From the NCBI GenBank assembly GCA_028571345.1, contig CP116769.1, positions 1,103,486 to 1,135,485 on the forward strand: a stretch of DNA of 32,000 nt, written 5' to 3'. Positions 4 through 9,765 of the stretch are shown here, in pieces. Source of the DNA: Wolbachia endosymbiont of Ctenocephalides orientis wCori (lineage in GTDB: Bacteria > Pseudomonadota > Alphaproteobacteria > Rickettsiales > Anaplasmataceae). How positions within the stretch are numbered: the first letter of the stretch is position 1; each line of letters opens with the position of its first letter. The position numbers and the translations under genes were made by a program. Under the pieces are notes generated by a model. The model saw only the letters and a program-made list of their open reading frames with translations, ran no database searches and was not told the origin of the DNA.

Positions 4-1698
4 ATGTTAAATAACTTGAGAAAATGCTATGAAAATAATAGCATTTCAAATGACACACAAAAATATTTTTGCTATCAAAAACGCTCTGTTTTTTTGATTT
101 CACAATCTCAAATGGTTCATGCAAGGGATCTTATGCGAACAAAAAATAAAGTCTTTAACCGAAGAGCATTTATATTGGGTGGGTTTCATCTTACCATTTC
201 TGCCGTTTTTAGTTATAGGCTATACAATTTACAAATCAAAAATAAACGAAAATACGAAATATTGTCCAATAAAAATAGGATACGAATAACCACTATTTTA
301 CCGCAGCGAGGTAAAATTTTGGATAGAAATAATATTGAGCTTGCAGCAAACAAAATCTCTTATTTTGTTATTTTTGATGGAGAAAAAATTTCTAATCGAG
401 AAGTAAATTTACATGAAGAGGAGCACAATATAACAGGAGAAAAAATCACCGCTCTTTATAAACGTCACTACCCATTTGGTCCGATATGCTCTCATATATT
501 GGGGTATACAAAAAAGCAACAAGGAACAAGTGAAGTGGGAGTCAGTGGTATTGAGTACATATACAACGATATATTAAAAGGCGAACCAGGGGAATTTCAG
601 CAAGAGATAAATTCCAGAAAGCGTGTAACTAAGGAATTATCAAGACTACCACAACAAGATGGGGAGGATGTGCAACTAACTATTGACATTAATCTCCAAG
701 AAAAAGTAGCAGGGGTATTTAAGGGCCACACAGGTTCTGTAACGATAATTGATATAAATGATGGAGGAATTTTAGCATTATATAATTCACCTTCTTATGA
801 CAATAACCTTTTTACTGATAGATTATCAAACGAAACTTGGGAAAATCTAAATTCTTCTGAACTGCCACTTGTGAATCGTGCACTTTCACATCAAATTCCA
901 CCCGGTTCAATTTTTAAGACAATAGTTGCACTTGCAGCATTAAAAGATGGAATAATCACAACAGAGAGGGAATTTCTATGCAGAGGCCACATGAAAATAG
1001 GTGAGCAAAAATTTCACTGTTGGAAAAAAGAAGGTCATGGATATGTATCTTTAAATGAAGCAATAGCCTCTTCGTGCAACACTTATTTTTATAATATAGG
1101 AAAAGAAATAAGCGTAGACTCTCTGATGGAAATGGCCAGCAAATTTGGTATTGGAAGTGGCAAATTGATAAAAACATTTAAAGAAGAAGCCTCAGGATTA
1201 TTACCTAATAAAGATTGGCGTACACGAAAGCTGTACTCAGAATGGCAATTGGATGATACTATTAATTTAGTTATAGGGCAGGGATATATTCTCACAACAC
1301 CGTTGCAGCTTGCAGTGCTTGCAGCAAGGCTTGCAACAGGAAAAGACATAACACCATGTATTGAAATGAGCAAAACAACACATGATTTCCCGTGCCTTGA
1401 TGTAAATCGCGAGCATCTTAATATAGTTCAAAAAGCTATGTTTGATGTGGTAAATTCTAAAATTGGCACTGCAGCATCTATTCATAAAAAAAGGTTTGAT
1501 TTTTCCAGAGGTGTTCAAATTTCAGGTAAAACCGGTACGCCAGAGACAAATTCTAAAAGCGCAAGTCACAAACTATTTATTGCTTATGTCCCTTCACATA
1601 ATCCACGTTATGCAATTTCTGTATTTATAGAAAATTGCAAATCTCCGCGTCAAGATTTCCTTGTAGCCAATGAAATATTTCAGTATATGCTTGCCTAG
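4..1698 (+). CDS. mrdA: Penicillin-binding protein 2 (class B PBP, elongation transpeptidase)
   Basis: 564-aa ORF with an N-terminal TM helix (FILGGFHLTISAVFSY). All three PBP boxes are visible: SxxK (GSIFKT), SxN (SSCNTYF) and KTG (SGKTGTP). The true start is probably Met at 112 or 133. The ORF is open to the window edge. Confidence 0.85.
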   Translation: MLNNLRKCYENNSISNDTQKYFCYQKRSVFLISQSQMVHARDLMRTKNKVFNRRAFILGGFHLTISAVFSYRLYNLQIKNKRKYEILSNKNRIRITTILPQRGKILDRNNIELAANKISYFVIFDGEKISNREVNLHEEEHNITGEKITALYKRHYPFGPICSHILGYTKKQQGTSEVGVSGIEYIYNDILKGEPGEFQQEINSRKRVTKELSRLPQQDGEDVQLTIDINLQEKVAGVFKGHTGSVTIIDINDGGILALYNSPSYDNNLFTDRLSNETWENLNSSELPLVNRALSHQIPPGSIFKTIVALAALKDGIITTEREFLCRGHMKIGEQKFHCWKKEGHGYVSLNEAIASSCNTYFYNIGKEISVDSLMEMASKFGIGSGKLIKTFKEEASGLLPNKDWRTRKLYSEWQLDDTINLVIGQGYILTTPLQLAVLAARLATGKDITPCIEMSKTTHDFPCLDVNREHLNIVQKAMFDVVNSKIGTAASIHKKRFDFSRGVQISGKTGTPETNSKSASHKLFIAYVPSHNPRYAISVFIENCKSPRQDFLVANEIFQYMLA

Positions 1699-2596: not shown

Positions 2597-2719
2597 CCTA
2601 CAACTGTATGAATATTGCGTTTTAGGTAAGTTGCTCCCAAAATGGTGTCATTCCAGTACTTGATACTAGGATCAAGTAAGAAAGACCTGGATTTCAGCGT
2701 CACACACTGGAATGACATC
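2571..2719 (+). repeat. Palindromic modular repeat, family 1, long-form copy (overlaps the dapF 3' end)
   Basis: 2571-2598 matches 29732-29759 with 2 mismatches in 28 nt. 2599-2643 resembles 21105-21150. 2644-2719 carries the termini ggtgtcattcc...ggaatgaca and an internal hairpin. Confidence 0.8.
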
Positions 2720-3259
2720 AACTGATTTTTCTTTAAATTAAAGCTATGCAAAAAATTTAAAAATCAAATACCATTAAAGCAAATCATTGCAGTAGGGAAA
2801 AGAAAATGCAGCCCATTAACAAGCTTACCTAGCAAGCATAACCACTCCGAAATAACGTTAGATTTTTCTTAGATCTCCCTATTCTGATCTTTGATCATGA
2901 TGTTCTACCCTTGCTTGTGTGACATCATTACCTGTTACATCGGCTTCATAAATTTGGTTGGAATTCTTGCCAATTCCTTGTTGTCTTCCTTTATCTGTTT
3001 ATTAAGTATACCTACCAATGCCCTGTTGTCTTTATCTTCACTATTTTCACTTATGAATTCATGCCGATAAAGTATTTTAAGAGCGTCTAGTAAAATTGCC
3101 ATGAAGAAATTGAGTTTAAAAGTAGGTCCATTGTTTTCTTGTCTGTATCATCTGAAAAACTTATAATTTATTTTATCTTATTAACAGATGTGTATTTAAG
3201 GTATTTTTTTATATTAACAAGTTTTTTGCATAATAATTCATTAATAAATTAGGTTTTAT

Positions 3260-3766
3260 ATGGATGATAATTTAGTATGTTTAGGAGTTATTACTTCTCC
3301 TCATGGTATAAAGGGTGCTGTTAAAGTAAAAATTTTTACTGAAAAACCTGAGGACATTTCTTTATATGGTGAATTAGTCAGTGATGGAAAGAGCTATAAA
3401 ATAAATTCAATATCTGTCATAGGTGATAGTTTAGTTATAGCAACAATTAATGGAGTAAGTTCTCGCAATGAAGCAGAACTCCTCAGAAACAAAAAATTAT
3501 ATGTGGCGAGAAATAAGCTACCGAAACTTGTATCTGAAGATGAATTTTATCAACACGATCTTATAGATATGAGAGTAATGCTAGAAAACAATGGGCTGTA
3601 TGGCTACGTGCAGTCTATACACAATTTTGGTGCAGGCGATATATTAGAGATCTCAGTGGTAGGTACACAAAAGACAATTATGTTATCTTTTACTAAAGAA
3701 ACATTTCCGCATATAAACATAAAAGAAAGGTATATAGTGTTAAATATGCCGCAGGTTATTGATTAG
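3260..3766 (+). CDS. rimM: 16S rRNA processing protein RimM
   Basis: 168 aa. The N-terminus [24 protein letters not shown] and a C-terminal PRC-barrel-like region are typical of RimM. Confidence 0.85.
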
Positions 3767-3777
3767 ATCTATTGCAT

Positions 3778-3896
3778 AACTCATTTTCTGATGGAAATTT
3801 TGTCTTTGAAGCTTAATTATGCTCCTAAAATATGTTCGAGTATTCTGCGGTGCTTATCTGCGACTCTCCTAAAAATTTCTCATCATAAACAGGTTC
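3778..3896 (-). repeat. Family 2 intergenic repeat (inverted copy)
   Basis: The reverse complement aligns over ~120 nt with 6536-6655. The shared core is tttttaggagag..gca..aagcac.gcagaatactcgaa..tatttt/gaggag, then gacaa(caa)aatt.ccat. Confidence 0.8.
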
Positions 3897-3976
3897 TGCA
3901 ATAGTCCTATTAACAAAGGCTTTGATATTTTATACAAAGCTACTTATAATTATGTAATCAAGTTAAGAGTGTATTT

Positions 3977-6476: not shown

Positions 6477-6535
6477 ACGTAATCTTTCAGCTAATTCTAT
6501 AGCCGTTAAAACCCTTGTGTAAATAGACTTCTTTT

Positions 6536-6655
6536 GAAACAGATTTATGGTGAGAAGTTTTTAGGAGAGGTGCAAGCAAGCACTGCAGAATACTCGAATG
6601 TATTTGAGGAGCGTAGCTCAGCATCGACAACAAAATTGCCATTAAAAATTGAGTT
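6536..6655 (+). repeat. Family 2 intergenic repeat (direct copy)
   Basis: Aligns with the reverse complement of 3778-3896. It lies between convergent dnaN and ispH. Confidence 0.8.
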
Positions 6656-6683
6656 TCGAAAGAAGTATAATCATAATTTTGAA

Positions 6684-7669: not shown

Positions 7670-9424
7670 ATGAAAGCACTACTTAAAAATAAGCTACGCT
7701 CACTATGTTTTATAGTACCATTATTTGTATTTTATATAATTATTATTTTTCGTATATGCTCTTTAGCATTTGGTGATCTAGATATTTCAAATGACCTGAG
7801 AAATAGTAGTAAAGAATACAGGCAACCTGATATTTTAGACAGAAATGGAGTAGTGGTTGCAACAAATGTGCCAACAACTTCGATATATACAGATCCAACC
7901 AGAGTAAAAAATTCAGAAAGCATAGCAACTCAATTATGCTCTACTTTGAGCAACCTTGAGTATGAAAATATATATAAAATACTTACTTCAAAAAAGAAAT
8001 TTGCCTGGATTAAACGGCATTTAGCTCCTCAAGAGTTGTTGAGAGTAAAAAATGATGGTGTACCTGGGATAAATTTCTATAGCGATGTAAAACGCATATA
8101 TCCACATGGTAATTTATTTGCACACGTGCTTGGCTACGCTGACATAGATGGTAGTGGTATTGCGGGCTTCGAGTCATATTTGAGCAAAAGACTGCCTTCC
8201 ATTGTTCAGGCAACTGACACACACTTATATAAATGTTGCAACTTGAAAGCAACTCTTACACAACAGATTGTGTCATCCCAGTGCTTGACACTGGGATCCA
8301 GGTATAAAAATACTCACGAATTATGTGATAAACAACAGATTTTAGAAACATGTGCCAAAAACAATACTCATGATGAAATTGTTCATAAAACTGGATTCCA
8401 GTGTCACAGCACTAGAATGACAACTAATGAATATGTAATGCTATGCGTAGTACACGATGAATTAACCAAAGCTATGAACAAATATCAAGCTCTTGGCGGA
8501 ATAGGAATTGTTTTAAATGTAGAAAACAGCGAGATTATTTCACTGGTTAGCTTGCCTGATTTTAATCCCAATCTCCAGAATAAAGCAAAAGATACACAGA
8601 AATTTAATCGTGCTAGTCTTGGAATATACGAAATGGGTTCAGTGTTAAAATTCTTTACCATAGCAGCAGCACTTGATGCAAACGTTATAAAGACCGATGA
8701 CTTATATGACGTATCAAAACCGATAACCATTGGAAAATATAAAATTCATGATTTTCATAAATCTAAGACTGCAAAAATTACTGTTCGAGATATATTTGTA
8801 AGATCATCTAATATTGGTGCAGCAAAAATTGCAGCTAAGCTTGGCATTGAAAAACAAGTGGAATATTTCAAAACGATGAAGCTGATTTCTCCACTAAAAG
8901 TAGAGATACCTGAAAAATCTAATCCAATAGCTCCAGATAAATGGAGTGAAAGCACGCTAATTACAGCATCTTACGGTTATGGAATAGCTATTACTCCTAT
9001 TCATATTGCACAGACTGCAGCTGCATTGGTTAATAATGGAATATTTCACAACGCAACTTTAATATTAGGTAAGAATAGCATAGGAGAGCAAATTATTACG
9101 AGAAAGACTTCCATTGAAATAAGAAAATTGTTGCGTAAGGCAGTGACCGATGGCACTGGAAGAAAGGCTAACGTCAAGGCCTACTCAATAGGAGGAAAAA
9201 TTGGATCAGCAGAGAAAGTTATAAATGGTAAATACAGTAAAGATGCAAACATAGCATCGTTTATAGGAGTCCTCACTACACTTGATCCAAGGTATATAGT
9301 ATTTATTGCAATTGATGAACCTCAGGGCATGCAATTTTCCACAGGGGGAATGATTGCTGCACCTATAGTAAAAAACATTATAAGTAGAATAATACCAATA
9401 TTAAATATAATGCCTGAGATGTAG
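7670..9424 (+). CDS. ftsI: Penicillin-binding protein 3 / FtsI-like class B PBP carrying an in-frame repeat-derived insert
   Basis: N-terminal TM helix, then [10 protein letters not shown] and [17 protein letters not shown] (PBP dimer module). SxxK is GSVLKF and SxN is RSSNIG. The third box reads GGKIGSA. Confidence 0.85.
8268..8424 (+). repeat. Family 1 palindromic element inside the ftsI ORF (core; may extend 5' to ~8200)
   Basis: Termini are tgtcatcc...gaatgaca. Hairpins are cccagtgcttgacactggg and ggatccag...ctggattcc. The ends are the same as the copy at 29741-29812, but the centre is longer. Confidence 0.8.
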
Positions 9425-9426
9425 AA

Positions 9427-9765
9427 TTAGGCCTTGCTTCTTATTGTAATCTCAAAGTTCTCATTATCAACAACTGTACTCACGAACAAAGAACCATCCT
9501 TTTGAGTTGTGAATTCTAGACCTTTAAGTTCTTTTTTCCCTAATTCTTTATCATTTTCTTTCAGAGTAATGCCAATATCGAACGTGGCAATATTTAGTTT
9601 TACCAAAGCTTCTTTTTCACCGGATGATCTTAAAGTAAGTTCATCTTTTCCTCGCATTAAATCATAAATATTAACTTCTCCCTTATAAATTTCACAATTA
9701 TTATTGGCATCATAATGTGTACTTTCAATACAAAGAATATCATCAAACATAAACATATAAAACAC
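9427..9765 (-). CDS. Hypothetical protein (112 aa), no recognisable family
   Basis: Clean ORF filling the gap between ftsI and grpE, with coding-like composition. No signal peptide or TM helix seen. The start could be at one of the Met codons at residues 1, 4 or 6. Confidence 0.5.
   Translation of the reverse strand: MFYMFMFDDILCIESTHYDANNNCEIYKGEVNIYDLMRGKDELTLRSSGEKEALVKLNIATFDIGITLKENDKELGKKELKGLEFTTQKDGSLFVSTVVDNENFEITIRSKA

Follow-up and report, generated by a model that had tools for sequence, protein, structure and literature searches.

Palindromic elements that lie in frame in genes of Wolbachia, the Wolbachia palindromic elements (WPE), reportedly go back to a 2005 description by Ogata, Suhre, and Claverie (Trends Microbiol 13:253), and the Rickettsia palindromic elements (RPE) are said to have been described by Ogata et al. 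in 2000 and 2002. Bacterial miniature inverted-repeat transposable elements (MITEs), e.g., the Correia elements of Neisseria, are small and nonautonomous, with inverted ends and many copies. Here, we analyze an insertion in ftsI, a gene for a class B penicillin-binding protein (PBP), in the Wolbachia endosymbiont of Ctenocephalides orientis, wCori. The window is the whole stretch of DNA that was analyzed, 32,000 nucleotides at positions 1,103,486 to 1,135,485 of the forward strand of contig CP116769.1. We propose that the insertion is very probably a copy of a genus-wide WPE-type palindromic repeat, inserted a single time into a permissive FtsI loop and kept in frame from then on.

In-frame WPE-like sequences have been found in addA, addB, and priA (Badawi et al. 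2014, PMC4224334), and WPE copies have been counted in Wolbachia genome papers (PMC4898810). Thus, in-frame palindromic repeats in Wolbachia are already known, and the ftsI case is a tidy further example rather than a new phenomenon. The ftsI family, like WPE, is found in Wolbachia, is dispersed and palindromic, and occurs in frame in housekeeping genes without stops, including genes for AddA-like helicases. It has the features of the WPE type: a dispersed palindromic repeat of ~60 to 160 nt with in-frame coding copies free of stop codons. What sets our description apart from that of WPE, the reading of the unit as a local hairpin and a rule of strand orientation, comes from the present analysis. 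An earlier note on this DNA, made from the letters alone, had named RPE as the precedent. In mode the two are indeed alike: RPE, too, are selfish palindromic repeats and are retained in frame within essential genes, at fold-compatible positions. RPE are not the sole precedent, given WPE in Wolbachia itself (PMC4224334), and belong to a different genus; the matches to the ftsI family, among those listed, come from Wolbachia or unclassified Rickettsiales metagenome-assembled genomes (MAGs). In the literature we found no report of a palindromic copy in ftsI, and the genome paper on wBm (PMC1069646) mentions both without linking them.

Repetitive extragenic palindromic (REP) sequences and bacterial interspersed mosaic elements (BIMEs) provide a further comparison. 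Among the palindromic repeats with GTAG or CGTC tags, CGTC-4 occurs in Wolbachia, and CGTC-1 and CGTC-4 (= RPE-6 and RPE-4) occur in Rickettsia (Di Nocera et al. 2013, PMC3733652). REP/BIME share with the ftsI family a short hairpin whose stem is maintained by compensatory changes, a short fixed tag by the stem, inverted dimers with variable spacers, and clustering with other repeats (PMC3733652). However, their tag is GTAG or CGTC, so that the TGTC(AT) of the ftsI family is a variant tag at best, and they are extragenic, whereas 29% of the units of the ftsI family lie inside long open reading frames (ORFs).

A dispersed palindromic repeat lies in frame in ftsI

The product of wCori ftsI is 100% identical to P0001, an FtsI-family protein of the same endosymbiont, whose genome (CP116769) was assembled from flea metagenomes and placed in supergroup I (PMC10438800). 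The usual length of FtsI in Wolbachia is 512 to 516 aa. The earlier note had stated that the frame stays open across the repeat, and it runs uninterrupted for 584 codons. It had also placed the repeat at 8200-8424, which held in the main; the true extra DNA relative to the relative L001, whose DNA lacks 8189-8425 of the window, is slightly wider. Alignments of orthologues from Wolbachia, Neoehrlichia, and Anaplasma set the insert at 79 codons. The protein P0002, 93% identical to wCori FtsI, reads SKNKEKNPVRLSLDLRIQSVVHDEL where wCori has 86 residues, and the most relevant comparison of lengths is 17 residues in element-free Wolbachia versus 86 in wCori. None of L001/P0002, P0012, P0014, P0017, Neoehrlichia, and Anaplasma has homologous residues across the segment. 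Because Neoehrlichia, Anaplasma, and ~90 more distant alphaproteobacterial homologues are all short at this site, the element-free state is ancestral.

In the protein, the insert follows the GxxGxE motif and precedes the S-L-D-x-R-x-Q junction motif. This is within the C-terminal part of the N-terminal module and not, as the earlier note had it, between that module and the transpeptidase domain. In the structure model, the segment falls between two confident modules. Pfam recognizes PBP_dimer at aa 54-157, where the match breaks off at profile position 123 of 180. Transpeptidase is matched at aa 279-571, and ~120 residues lie outside both. Neisseria gonorrhoeae PBP2 (E=2e-65) and Pseudomonas aeruginosa FtsI (E=1e-51) are its relatives in the PDB. 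The nearest solved structures match FtsI as two separate blocks, residues 53-172 and 259-582; the gap between them is 86 residues in wCori FtsI versus 47 in N. gonorrhoeae PBP2. The motifs of the N-terminal module are present (DRNG, 57-60; RxYP, 142-145; GxxGxE, 163-168), and the catalytic boxes SxxK (S324-K327) and SxN (S379-N381) are kept.

The termini and hairpin modules that had been quoted for 8268-8424 were found in the sequence, and their similarity to the intergenic copies in the window is significant. An nhmmer profile built from the four intergenic copies only gave two + strand matches in ftsI in the correct order, 8266-8311 with E=2.2e-9 and 8385-8425 with E=2e-5, and recovered its own members at 2642-2720, 21149-21205, 25099-25135, and 29735-29813. 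When ≤3 mismatches are allowed, the window holds six matches to the 23-nt terminal pattern, and 100 shuffles hold none; the left unit of the ftsI copy is an exact match to it. The earlier note had named homologous residues in element-free relatives, or a lack of significant nucleotide similarity, as refuting. Neither was found, and the interpretation as an in-frame palindromic element in ftsI is supported. The likeness of 8200-8267 to a long-form module, also claimed in the earlier note, did not reach significance against 21075-21152 and 25025-25102 in the window (E=3.4). However, the 5' module does match a copy outside ftsI, L020:2259-2317 in the Wolbachia of Tribolium confusum (E=0.002). Because this colinear module lies directly upstream of the L020 core, module and core form a recurring composite.

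The region 8266-8427 has a fold energy of -51.8 kcal/mol (z=-6.3), and the short intergenic copy at 2640-2722 has one of -33.7 kcal/mol (z=-6.6). Three further compensated pairs distinguish the copy at 29739, which has CCTATGG/CCATAGG in place of the consensus CCCAGTG/CACTGGG. No Rfam family matched the window at the gathering threshold. The translated segment, described as Cys-rich in the earlier note, has 6 Cys in 79 residues, and these are a by-product of CAGTG(C/T) in the hairpin units. A scan of the insert for promoters and terminators gave no sense-strand terminator and a promoter-like count below shuffle expectation. The unit loops contain a -35-like hexamer, TTGACA or GTGACA (e.g., 8285-8290 and 8402-8407, pointing into the element), which is a consensus match only. 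The features are listed in Table 1.

Table 1. Coordinates in the window of ftsI, the parts of its insertion, and related features
Feature	Position	Strand	Description
ftsI (class B PBP) ORF	7670-9424	+	584 aa, 584 codons without stop; host of the insertion
Whole insertion relative to element-free allele	8189-8425	+	237 nt = 79 codons, residues 174-252 (RLPSIVQ...STRMTT); from DNA and protein alignments with L001, L002, and L003
5' module	8197-8267	+	Degenerate start resembling a hairpin unit (ccattgttcaggcaactgacac), then spacer; colinear with L020:2259-2317 and with the ftsI elements of L002 and L003
Core of insert	8270-8423		Two inverted 33-nt hairpin units round an 89-nt center; 154-nt unit-to-unit span
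Left hairpin unit	8270-8301	+	TGTCAT, 9-bp stem ATCCCAGTG/CACTGGGAT, loop CTTGA, CCAG; read as 11 residues; nhmmer E=2e-9
Central segment of long-form core	8302-8390	+	Aligns with the copy centers of L002, L003, and (3' part) L020
Right hairpin unit, inverted	8391-8423	-	The + strand reads 11 residues; nhmmer unit E=6e-5
Right junction (NEYVMLC)	8426-8446	+	Followed by the wCori-specific 21-nt in-frame deletion, between 8446 and 8447
KTG to KIG	9200-9202	+	Codon ATT = Ile511; third box K510-I511-G512
Second class B PBP	4-1698		PBP_dimer and Transpeptidase; presumably PBP2; adjoins dapF, 6 kb from ftsI
Intergenic short-form copy	2642-2720	+	Two inverted units, 10-nt center; profile E=1.6e-25
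Intergenic copy	21076-21205	+	5' module and collapsed core
Intergenic copy	25026-25135	+	5' module and left unit only
Intergenic short-form copy	29735-29813	+	Left stem CCTATGG/CCATAGG

Empty, short, long, and double alleles occur at one site

An orthologous element with identical left and right junctions is present in the ftsI genes of wCfeJ (L002, CP051157.1, 596 aa) and L003 (614 aa), and the ftsI fragment P0121 and P0005 also carry the element. Because wCori, wCfeJ, and a third lineage have the same junctions, the element goes back to one insertion event. Three alleles were found in a group with near-identical flanks: one is empty (L115), one has a complete short-form element (L116, 541 aa), and L003 has the long composite with a further degenerate copy. 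The ftsI gene of wFol has two partial elements in tandem. In wCfeT, the FtsI homologue is without the element at the site, and its annotation starts only at residue ~153.

We infer that homologous recombination among strains, together with later decay or nested insertions, produced this patchy distribution. Three observations underlie this view: neither the 93%-identical L001 nor wCfeT has the element, the alleles found elsewhere may be short, long, or double, and the insert has lower synonymous and higher nonsynonymous divergence than its flanks. With empty, short, long, and double alleles at one site, ftsI is a clean, well-bounded example in a cell wall enzyme, and its loop is well suited, as a natural experiment, to the study of how selfish DNA is accommodated by proteins.

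We also observed that the FtsI loop in L116:539-2164, L117:1001-2683, L003:1458-3302, P0006, P0011, and P0013 holds a complete short-form element, two partial elements in tandem, or short remnants. Across Wolbachia, the site amounts to a series of decayed and nested copies.

The repeat unit is kept as a local hairpin

The terminal pattern is present in at least 111 stretches of species-representative genomes, and the hosts of the bacteria among the matches listed are insects and filarial worms (Litomosoides, Mansonella). We found no evidence for phage WO as a main carrier, with the pattern in only 2 viral contigs. In 0.86 Mb of retrieved DNA, 116 sources contained 339 units (nhmmer, E <= 0.01). 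Each unit, the building block of the family, is 33 nt long and is composed of a near-invariant TGTCAT, a 9-bp stem, a 5-nt loop, and CCAG. The units form 87 left/right pairs, inverted and with a variable center, and their spans cluster at 60 to 80 nt and 100 to 160 nt; the core in ftsI, at 154 nt, falls into the second class.

In 148 distinct units, 92.8% of the stem cells were paired, compared with 87.9 ± 0.3% in shuffles and ≤42% in slid controls. Two stem pairs covary strongly: 81 units have CG and 46 have TA at pair 9-27, and 115 have TA and 26 have CG at pair 14-22. These unit counts do not equal independent events, as changes within a subfamily are inherited. In 21 of the 37 complete elements, the left and right units differ from each other, with CG in one and TA in the other at pair 9-27. 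Overall pairing in the 37 elements is 0.94 locally and 0.88 across left and right; at the two covarying pairs, local pairing is 0.85 to 1.00 and cross pairing only 0.64 to 0.73. Thus, left and right units with different compensated pairs show that the selected object is the local hairpin and not a long left-right duplex. The unit's own hairpin is kept by compensatory changes better than the pairing of left with right, which is the architecture of a REP/BIME dimer. In its anatomy, the ftsI element is best described as REP/BIME-like, a dimer of hairpin units preceded by a 5' module, and it does not look like a classical transposon-derived MITE.

CGTC-type units (CGTCATCCCGCTA...TAGCGGGATC) adjoin TGTC units in the loci examined, and a GTCAT...ATC frame is common to both. 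The shared frame hints that CGTC- and TGTC-tagged hairpins may belong to a common superfamily. Separately, we noted that CGTC-tagged hairpins (CGTCATACCGCCGCGGTATC; GATCCCGCTAACACGTAGCGGGATGACG) cluster beside TGTC-tagged units in L010 (e.g., near 1009), L013, and L089.

Coding copies follow a strand orientation rule

Units lie in long ORFs, defined as stop-free spans of ≥150 codons, in 98 of 339 cases, versus 65% of random positions. The hosts of coding copies include AddA-like UvrD helicases, PurL, DnaE, and a 2-oxoacid dehydrogenase E2 protein. Across all units in loci L004 to L114, a hairpin followed within a few bases by a T-rich tail was seen in 5% of coding units in sense orientation, 72% of those in antisense orientation, and 33% of noncoding units. 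The contrast persisted when we collapsed the units to 47 host-gene neighborhoods (3/39 sense versus 16/22 antisense, p=2e-7). The ftsI copy fits the rule: the sense strand carries no terminator-like site, while on the antisense strand the right unit resembles a terminator. Because the A-rich strand of the copy is the sense one, no hairpin with a U-tract is placed on the mRNA. The rule could be caused by avoidance of such a structure on the mRNA or by a preference for loops rich in Lys, Glu, and Asn over loops rich in Phe and Leu, and both are possible.

Constraint on ftsI and on its insert

Relative to L001, the flanks of the insert are under purifying selection, with dN/dS (the ratio of nonsynonymous to synonymous divergence) of 0.13 in the N-terminal part and 0.095 in the C-terminal part, and the neighboring genes ispH, grpE, polyprenyl synthase, and rpsP have values of 0.12 to 0.30. 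When changes were polarized with five other alleles, the ratio of nonsynonymous to synonymous changes (N:S) was 13:29 on the wCori branch and 11:23 on the L001 branch (p=1). In contrast, dN/dS of the insert among the three orthologous copies is 0.4 to 0.7, with dS of 0.28 to 0.50 versus 0.72 to 1.33 in the flanks and dN above that of the flanks; the N:S ratios of insert and flanks differ (Fisher p <= 0.0012). This pattern fits constraint at the nucleotide level, or a younger allele acquired via recombination, and not a selected peptide. A protein family for the element peptide was considered and rejected: against 1.84 billion representative proteins, the 79-aa segment gave only 10 weak matches, of which the best is another ftsI fragment and two are unrelated low-complexity repeat proteins.

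The earlier note had suggested that structure prediction would tell whether the insert is a surface excursion. With a corrected alignment, AlphaFold2 gave residues 178-251 a pLDDT (predicted local distance difference test) of 24 to 37 and both modules values of >90. Thus, the insert is predicted to be a disordered, low-confidence excursion between two well-folded modules. Our first alignment had produced a strand at 204-206, within the element, with a pLDDT of ~86. This strand was an artifact of the MAFFT alignment, in which CLTLGSRY, encoded by the element, had been matched to the LSLDxRVQ columns. The strand was lost with the corrected alignment, in which element-free Wolbachia sequences were removed, element was aligned to element, and a 7-residue gap followed YVML. 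We also rejected the idea that the element replaces the S-L-D-x-R-x-Q motif deleted in wCori, which rested on the misaligned first model; 178-251 drops below pLDDT 50 once the alignment is corrected. The lesson for annotation and structure prediction is that a standard alignment can yield a spurious confident strand from element-encoded residues.

Proposed course and points that weigh against it

We propose that an ancestral, short, element-free FtsI loop received the element in a single insertion. Its tolerance would be explained by a frame that was kept, the lack of a stop codon, a site that is a variable excursion in other bacteria, and a segment that, to judge from models and statistics, is disordered. 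Selection would then act on the flanks of FtsI and not on the encoded peptide. By analogy with REPs, the hairpin units may be copied by a single-strand, hairpin-recognizing mechanism, and a classical insertion sequence (IS) transposase would be the less likely mover.

Several points speak against this course. There is no target-site duplication at the ftsI junctions when the empty (L115) and filled (L116, L003) alleles are compared, and the codons on each side also differ between these alleles, so that they do not form a clean insertion or excision pair. We identified no cognate transposase, and genes of the RAYT (REP-associated tyrosine transposase)/Y1 type were not looked for genome-wide. 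The covariation in the hairpin could stem from a few inherited subfamily changes and not from repeated selection. Membership of the ftsI family in WPE is suggested by shared properties and by copies in addA-like genes. Translation of the element segment as part of FtsI is predicted from the open frame. Finally, wCori FtsI has two unique lesions at highly conserved positions, and tolerance of the whole wCori allele may be incomplete.

The lesions were absent from the earlier note. Directly after the element, a 21-nt in-frame deletion at 8446/8447 removes S-L-D-x-R-x-Q from wCori FtsI; in these columns D is present in 95 of 97 homologues, R in 91 of 97, and Q in 96 of 97, and the gap is found in wCori only. 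Of 118 homologues, 116 have T at the middle position of the KTG box and one has S; Ile is unique to wCori. Both lesions rest on a single assembly.

Alternative explanations

The strongest alternative, which we hold to be unlikely, is a classical MITE, with the 33-nt units serving as terminal inverted repeats of an IS whose DDE transposase moved the copies in trans. The family and Correia-type MITEs are alike in small size, nonautonomy, inverted ends, high copy number, and a possible -35-like hexamer, which in the family is TTGACA in the unit loop. Further, the units are inverted at both ends of the short noncoding element, the sizes fall into discrete classes, and IS elements are abundant in Wolbachia genomes (PMC4898810). 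However, MITEs differ from the ftsI family in that neither a target-site duplication at the ftsI site nor, in the two intervals described next, a parent IS was found for the latter, and its ends evolve as independent hairpins: left and right units often differ at compensated stem positions, which favors selection on the local hairpin over end-to-end identity. We looked for the parent IS in two of the four unit-bounded intervals of 0.5 to 4 kb. Each is ~1 kb, and they hold an IS630-like gene (L044) and an IS5-like gene (L021). These belong to unrelated families; therefore, they are nested insertions and not the parent element. The transposase ORFs of L044 begin ~70 nt inside the left unit, which fits a nested insertion as well.

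Separately, the presence of IS630-like (L044:1581-2630) and IS5-like (L021:5836-6918) transposase genes between unit pairs suggests that IS elements use the repeats as sites of insertion.

Next, wCori ftsI could be a cryptic pseudogene or encode a catalytically dead protein, inactivated by the element, the 7-residue deletion, and KIG together, so that read-through has no functional meaning. The earlier note had called ftsI essential, which is not established. The gene cannot simply be called essential, because ftsI and ftsW are frameshifted pseudogenes in wBm (PMC1069646), because a second class B PBP is encoded in the window, and because the wCfeT homologue is annotated only from residue ~153. 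These facts also favor inactivation, as does the fact that wCori is alone in lacking S-L-D-x-R-x-Q (1 of 97) and alone in having Ile in the KTG box (1 of 118). However, dN/dS in the ftsI flanks is as low as or below that of neighboring housekeeping genes, and the wCori branch shows no nonsynonymous excess; general relaxed constraint or pseudogenization is rejected on the pairwise dN/dS and the polarized branch counts, although these leave the two lesions unexplained. SxxK, SxN, and the K and G of the third box are intact, and both FtsI modules are still predicted by AlphaFold2 to fold (pLDDT >90). We consider loss of function unlikely, and it is possible in the form of a very recent inactivation.

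A role of the segment as a co-opted periplasmic domain of FtsI, specific to the lineage, containing Cys, and contributing to divisome function, is highly improbable. The allele is retained in frame in at least three divergent lineages, with 6 Cys in 79 residues of a periplasmic protein, and dN/dS of the element is <1. However, the Cys codons come from CAGTG(C/T) of the hairpin units, the peptide has no family among the proteins searched, the segment is predicted to be disordered, and the one apparently confident beta-strand vanished with the corrected alignment. Higher dN and lower dS than in the flanks point to constraint at the nucleotide and not the protein level, and the close relatives L001, wCfeT, and P0012 manage without the segment.

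An assembly artifact, in which a repeat was wrongly collapsed into ftsI of a metagenome-derived genome, is hardly credible: wCori does come from flea metagenomes, and the exact protein comes from a single contig, but the reading frame is preserved across the element, and the same element with the same junctions is found in independent assemblies (the complete genome of wCfeJ, L002; the MAG L003; P0005; and the fragment P0121).

A bolder combination of two linked readings can be put forward as a speculation that is unlikely to hold. The 33-nt units would be a TGTC-tagged branch of the REP superfamily, copied by a single-strand mechanism that recognizes hairpins, and would colonize ORFs under a strict orientation rule that keeps the hairpin with its T-tract off the sense strand. 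In that case, Wolbachia would offer a natural setting for the routine remodeling of essential proteins by REP-type elements. wCori FtsI, which has lost S-L-D-x-R-x-Q and has KIG for KTG but stays under purifying selection, would persist as a noncanonical class B PBP, e.g., as only a scaffold or as an activator of FtsW. The by-products of our analysis, namely, the conservation of local hairpins, the strand orientation rule, and a constrained wCori FtsI without two near-universal features of class B PBPs, go somewhat further than the insertion itself.

Other features of the window

The last codons of dapF (diaminopimelate epimerase; ORF 1766-2596; ...FCHPMA*) and its TGA lie within a hairpin-unit fragment at 2547-2598 that is 83% identical to 29708-29759. 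Therefore, the repeat fragment supplies the C-terminal tail and the stop codon of this gene. A separate repeat family is represented by a 156-nt inverted repeat at 3761-3915 and 6523-6672, which are 73% complementary (nhmmer E=3e-17 between the arms). Its arms flank efp, a gene of the inositol-monophosphatase family, and dnaN, and there is one more copy in L014. Downstream of ftsI, a 112-aa ORF at 9427-9765 on the - strand has no Pfam match, and its dN/dS relative to its counterpart in L001 is 1.34, while that of the other neighbors is 0.1 to 0.3.

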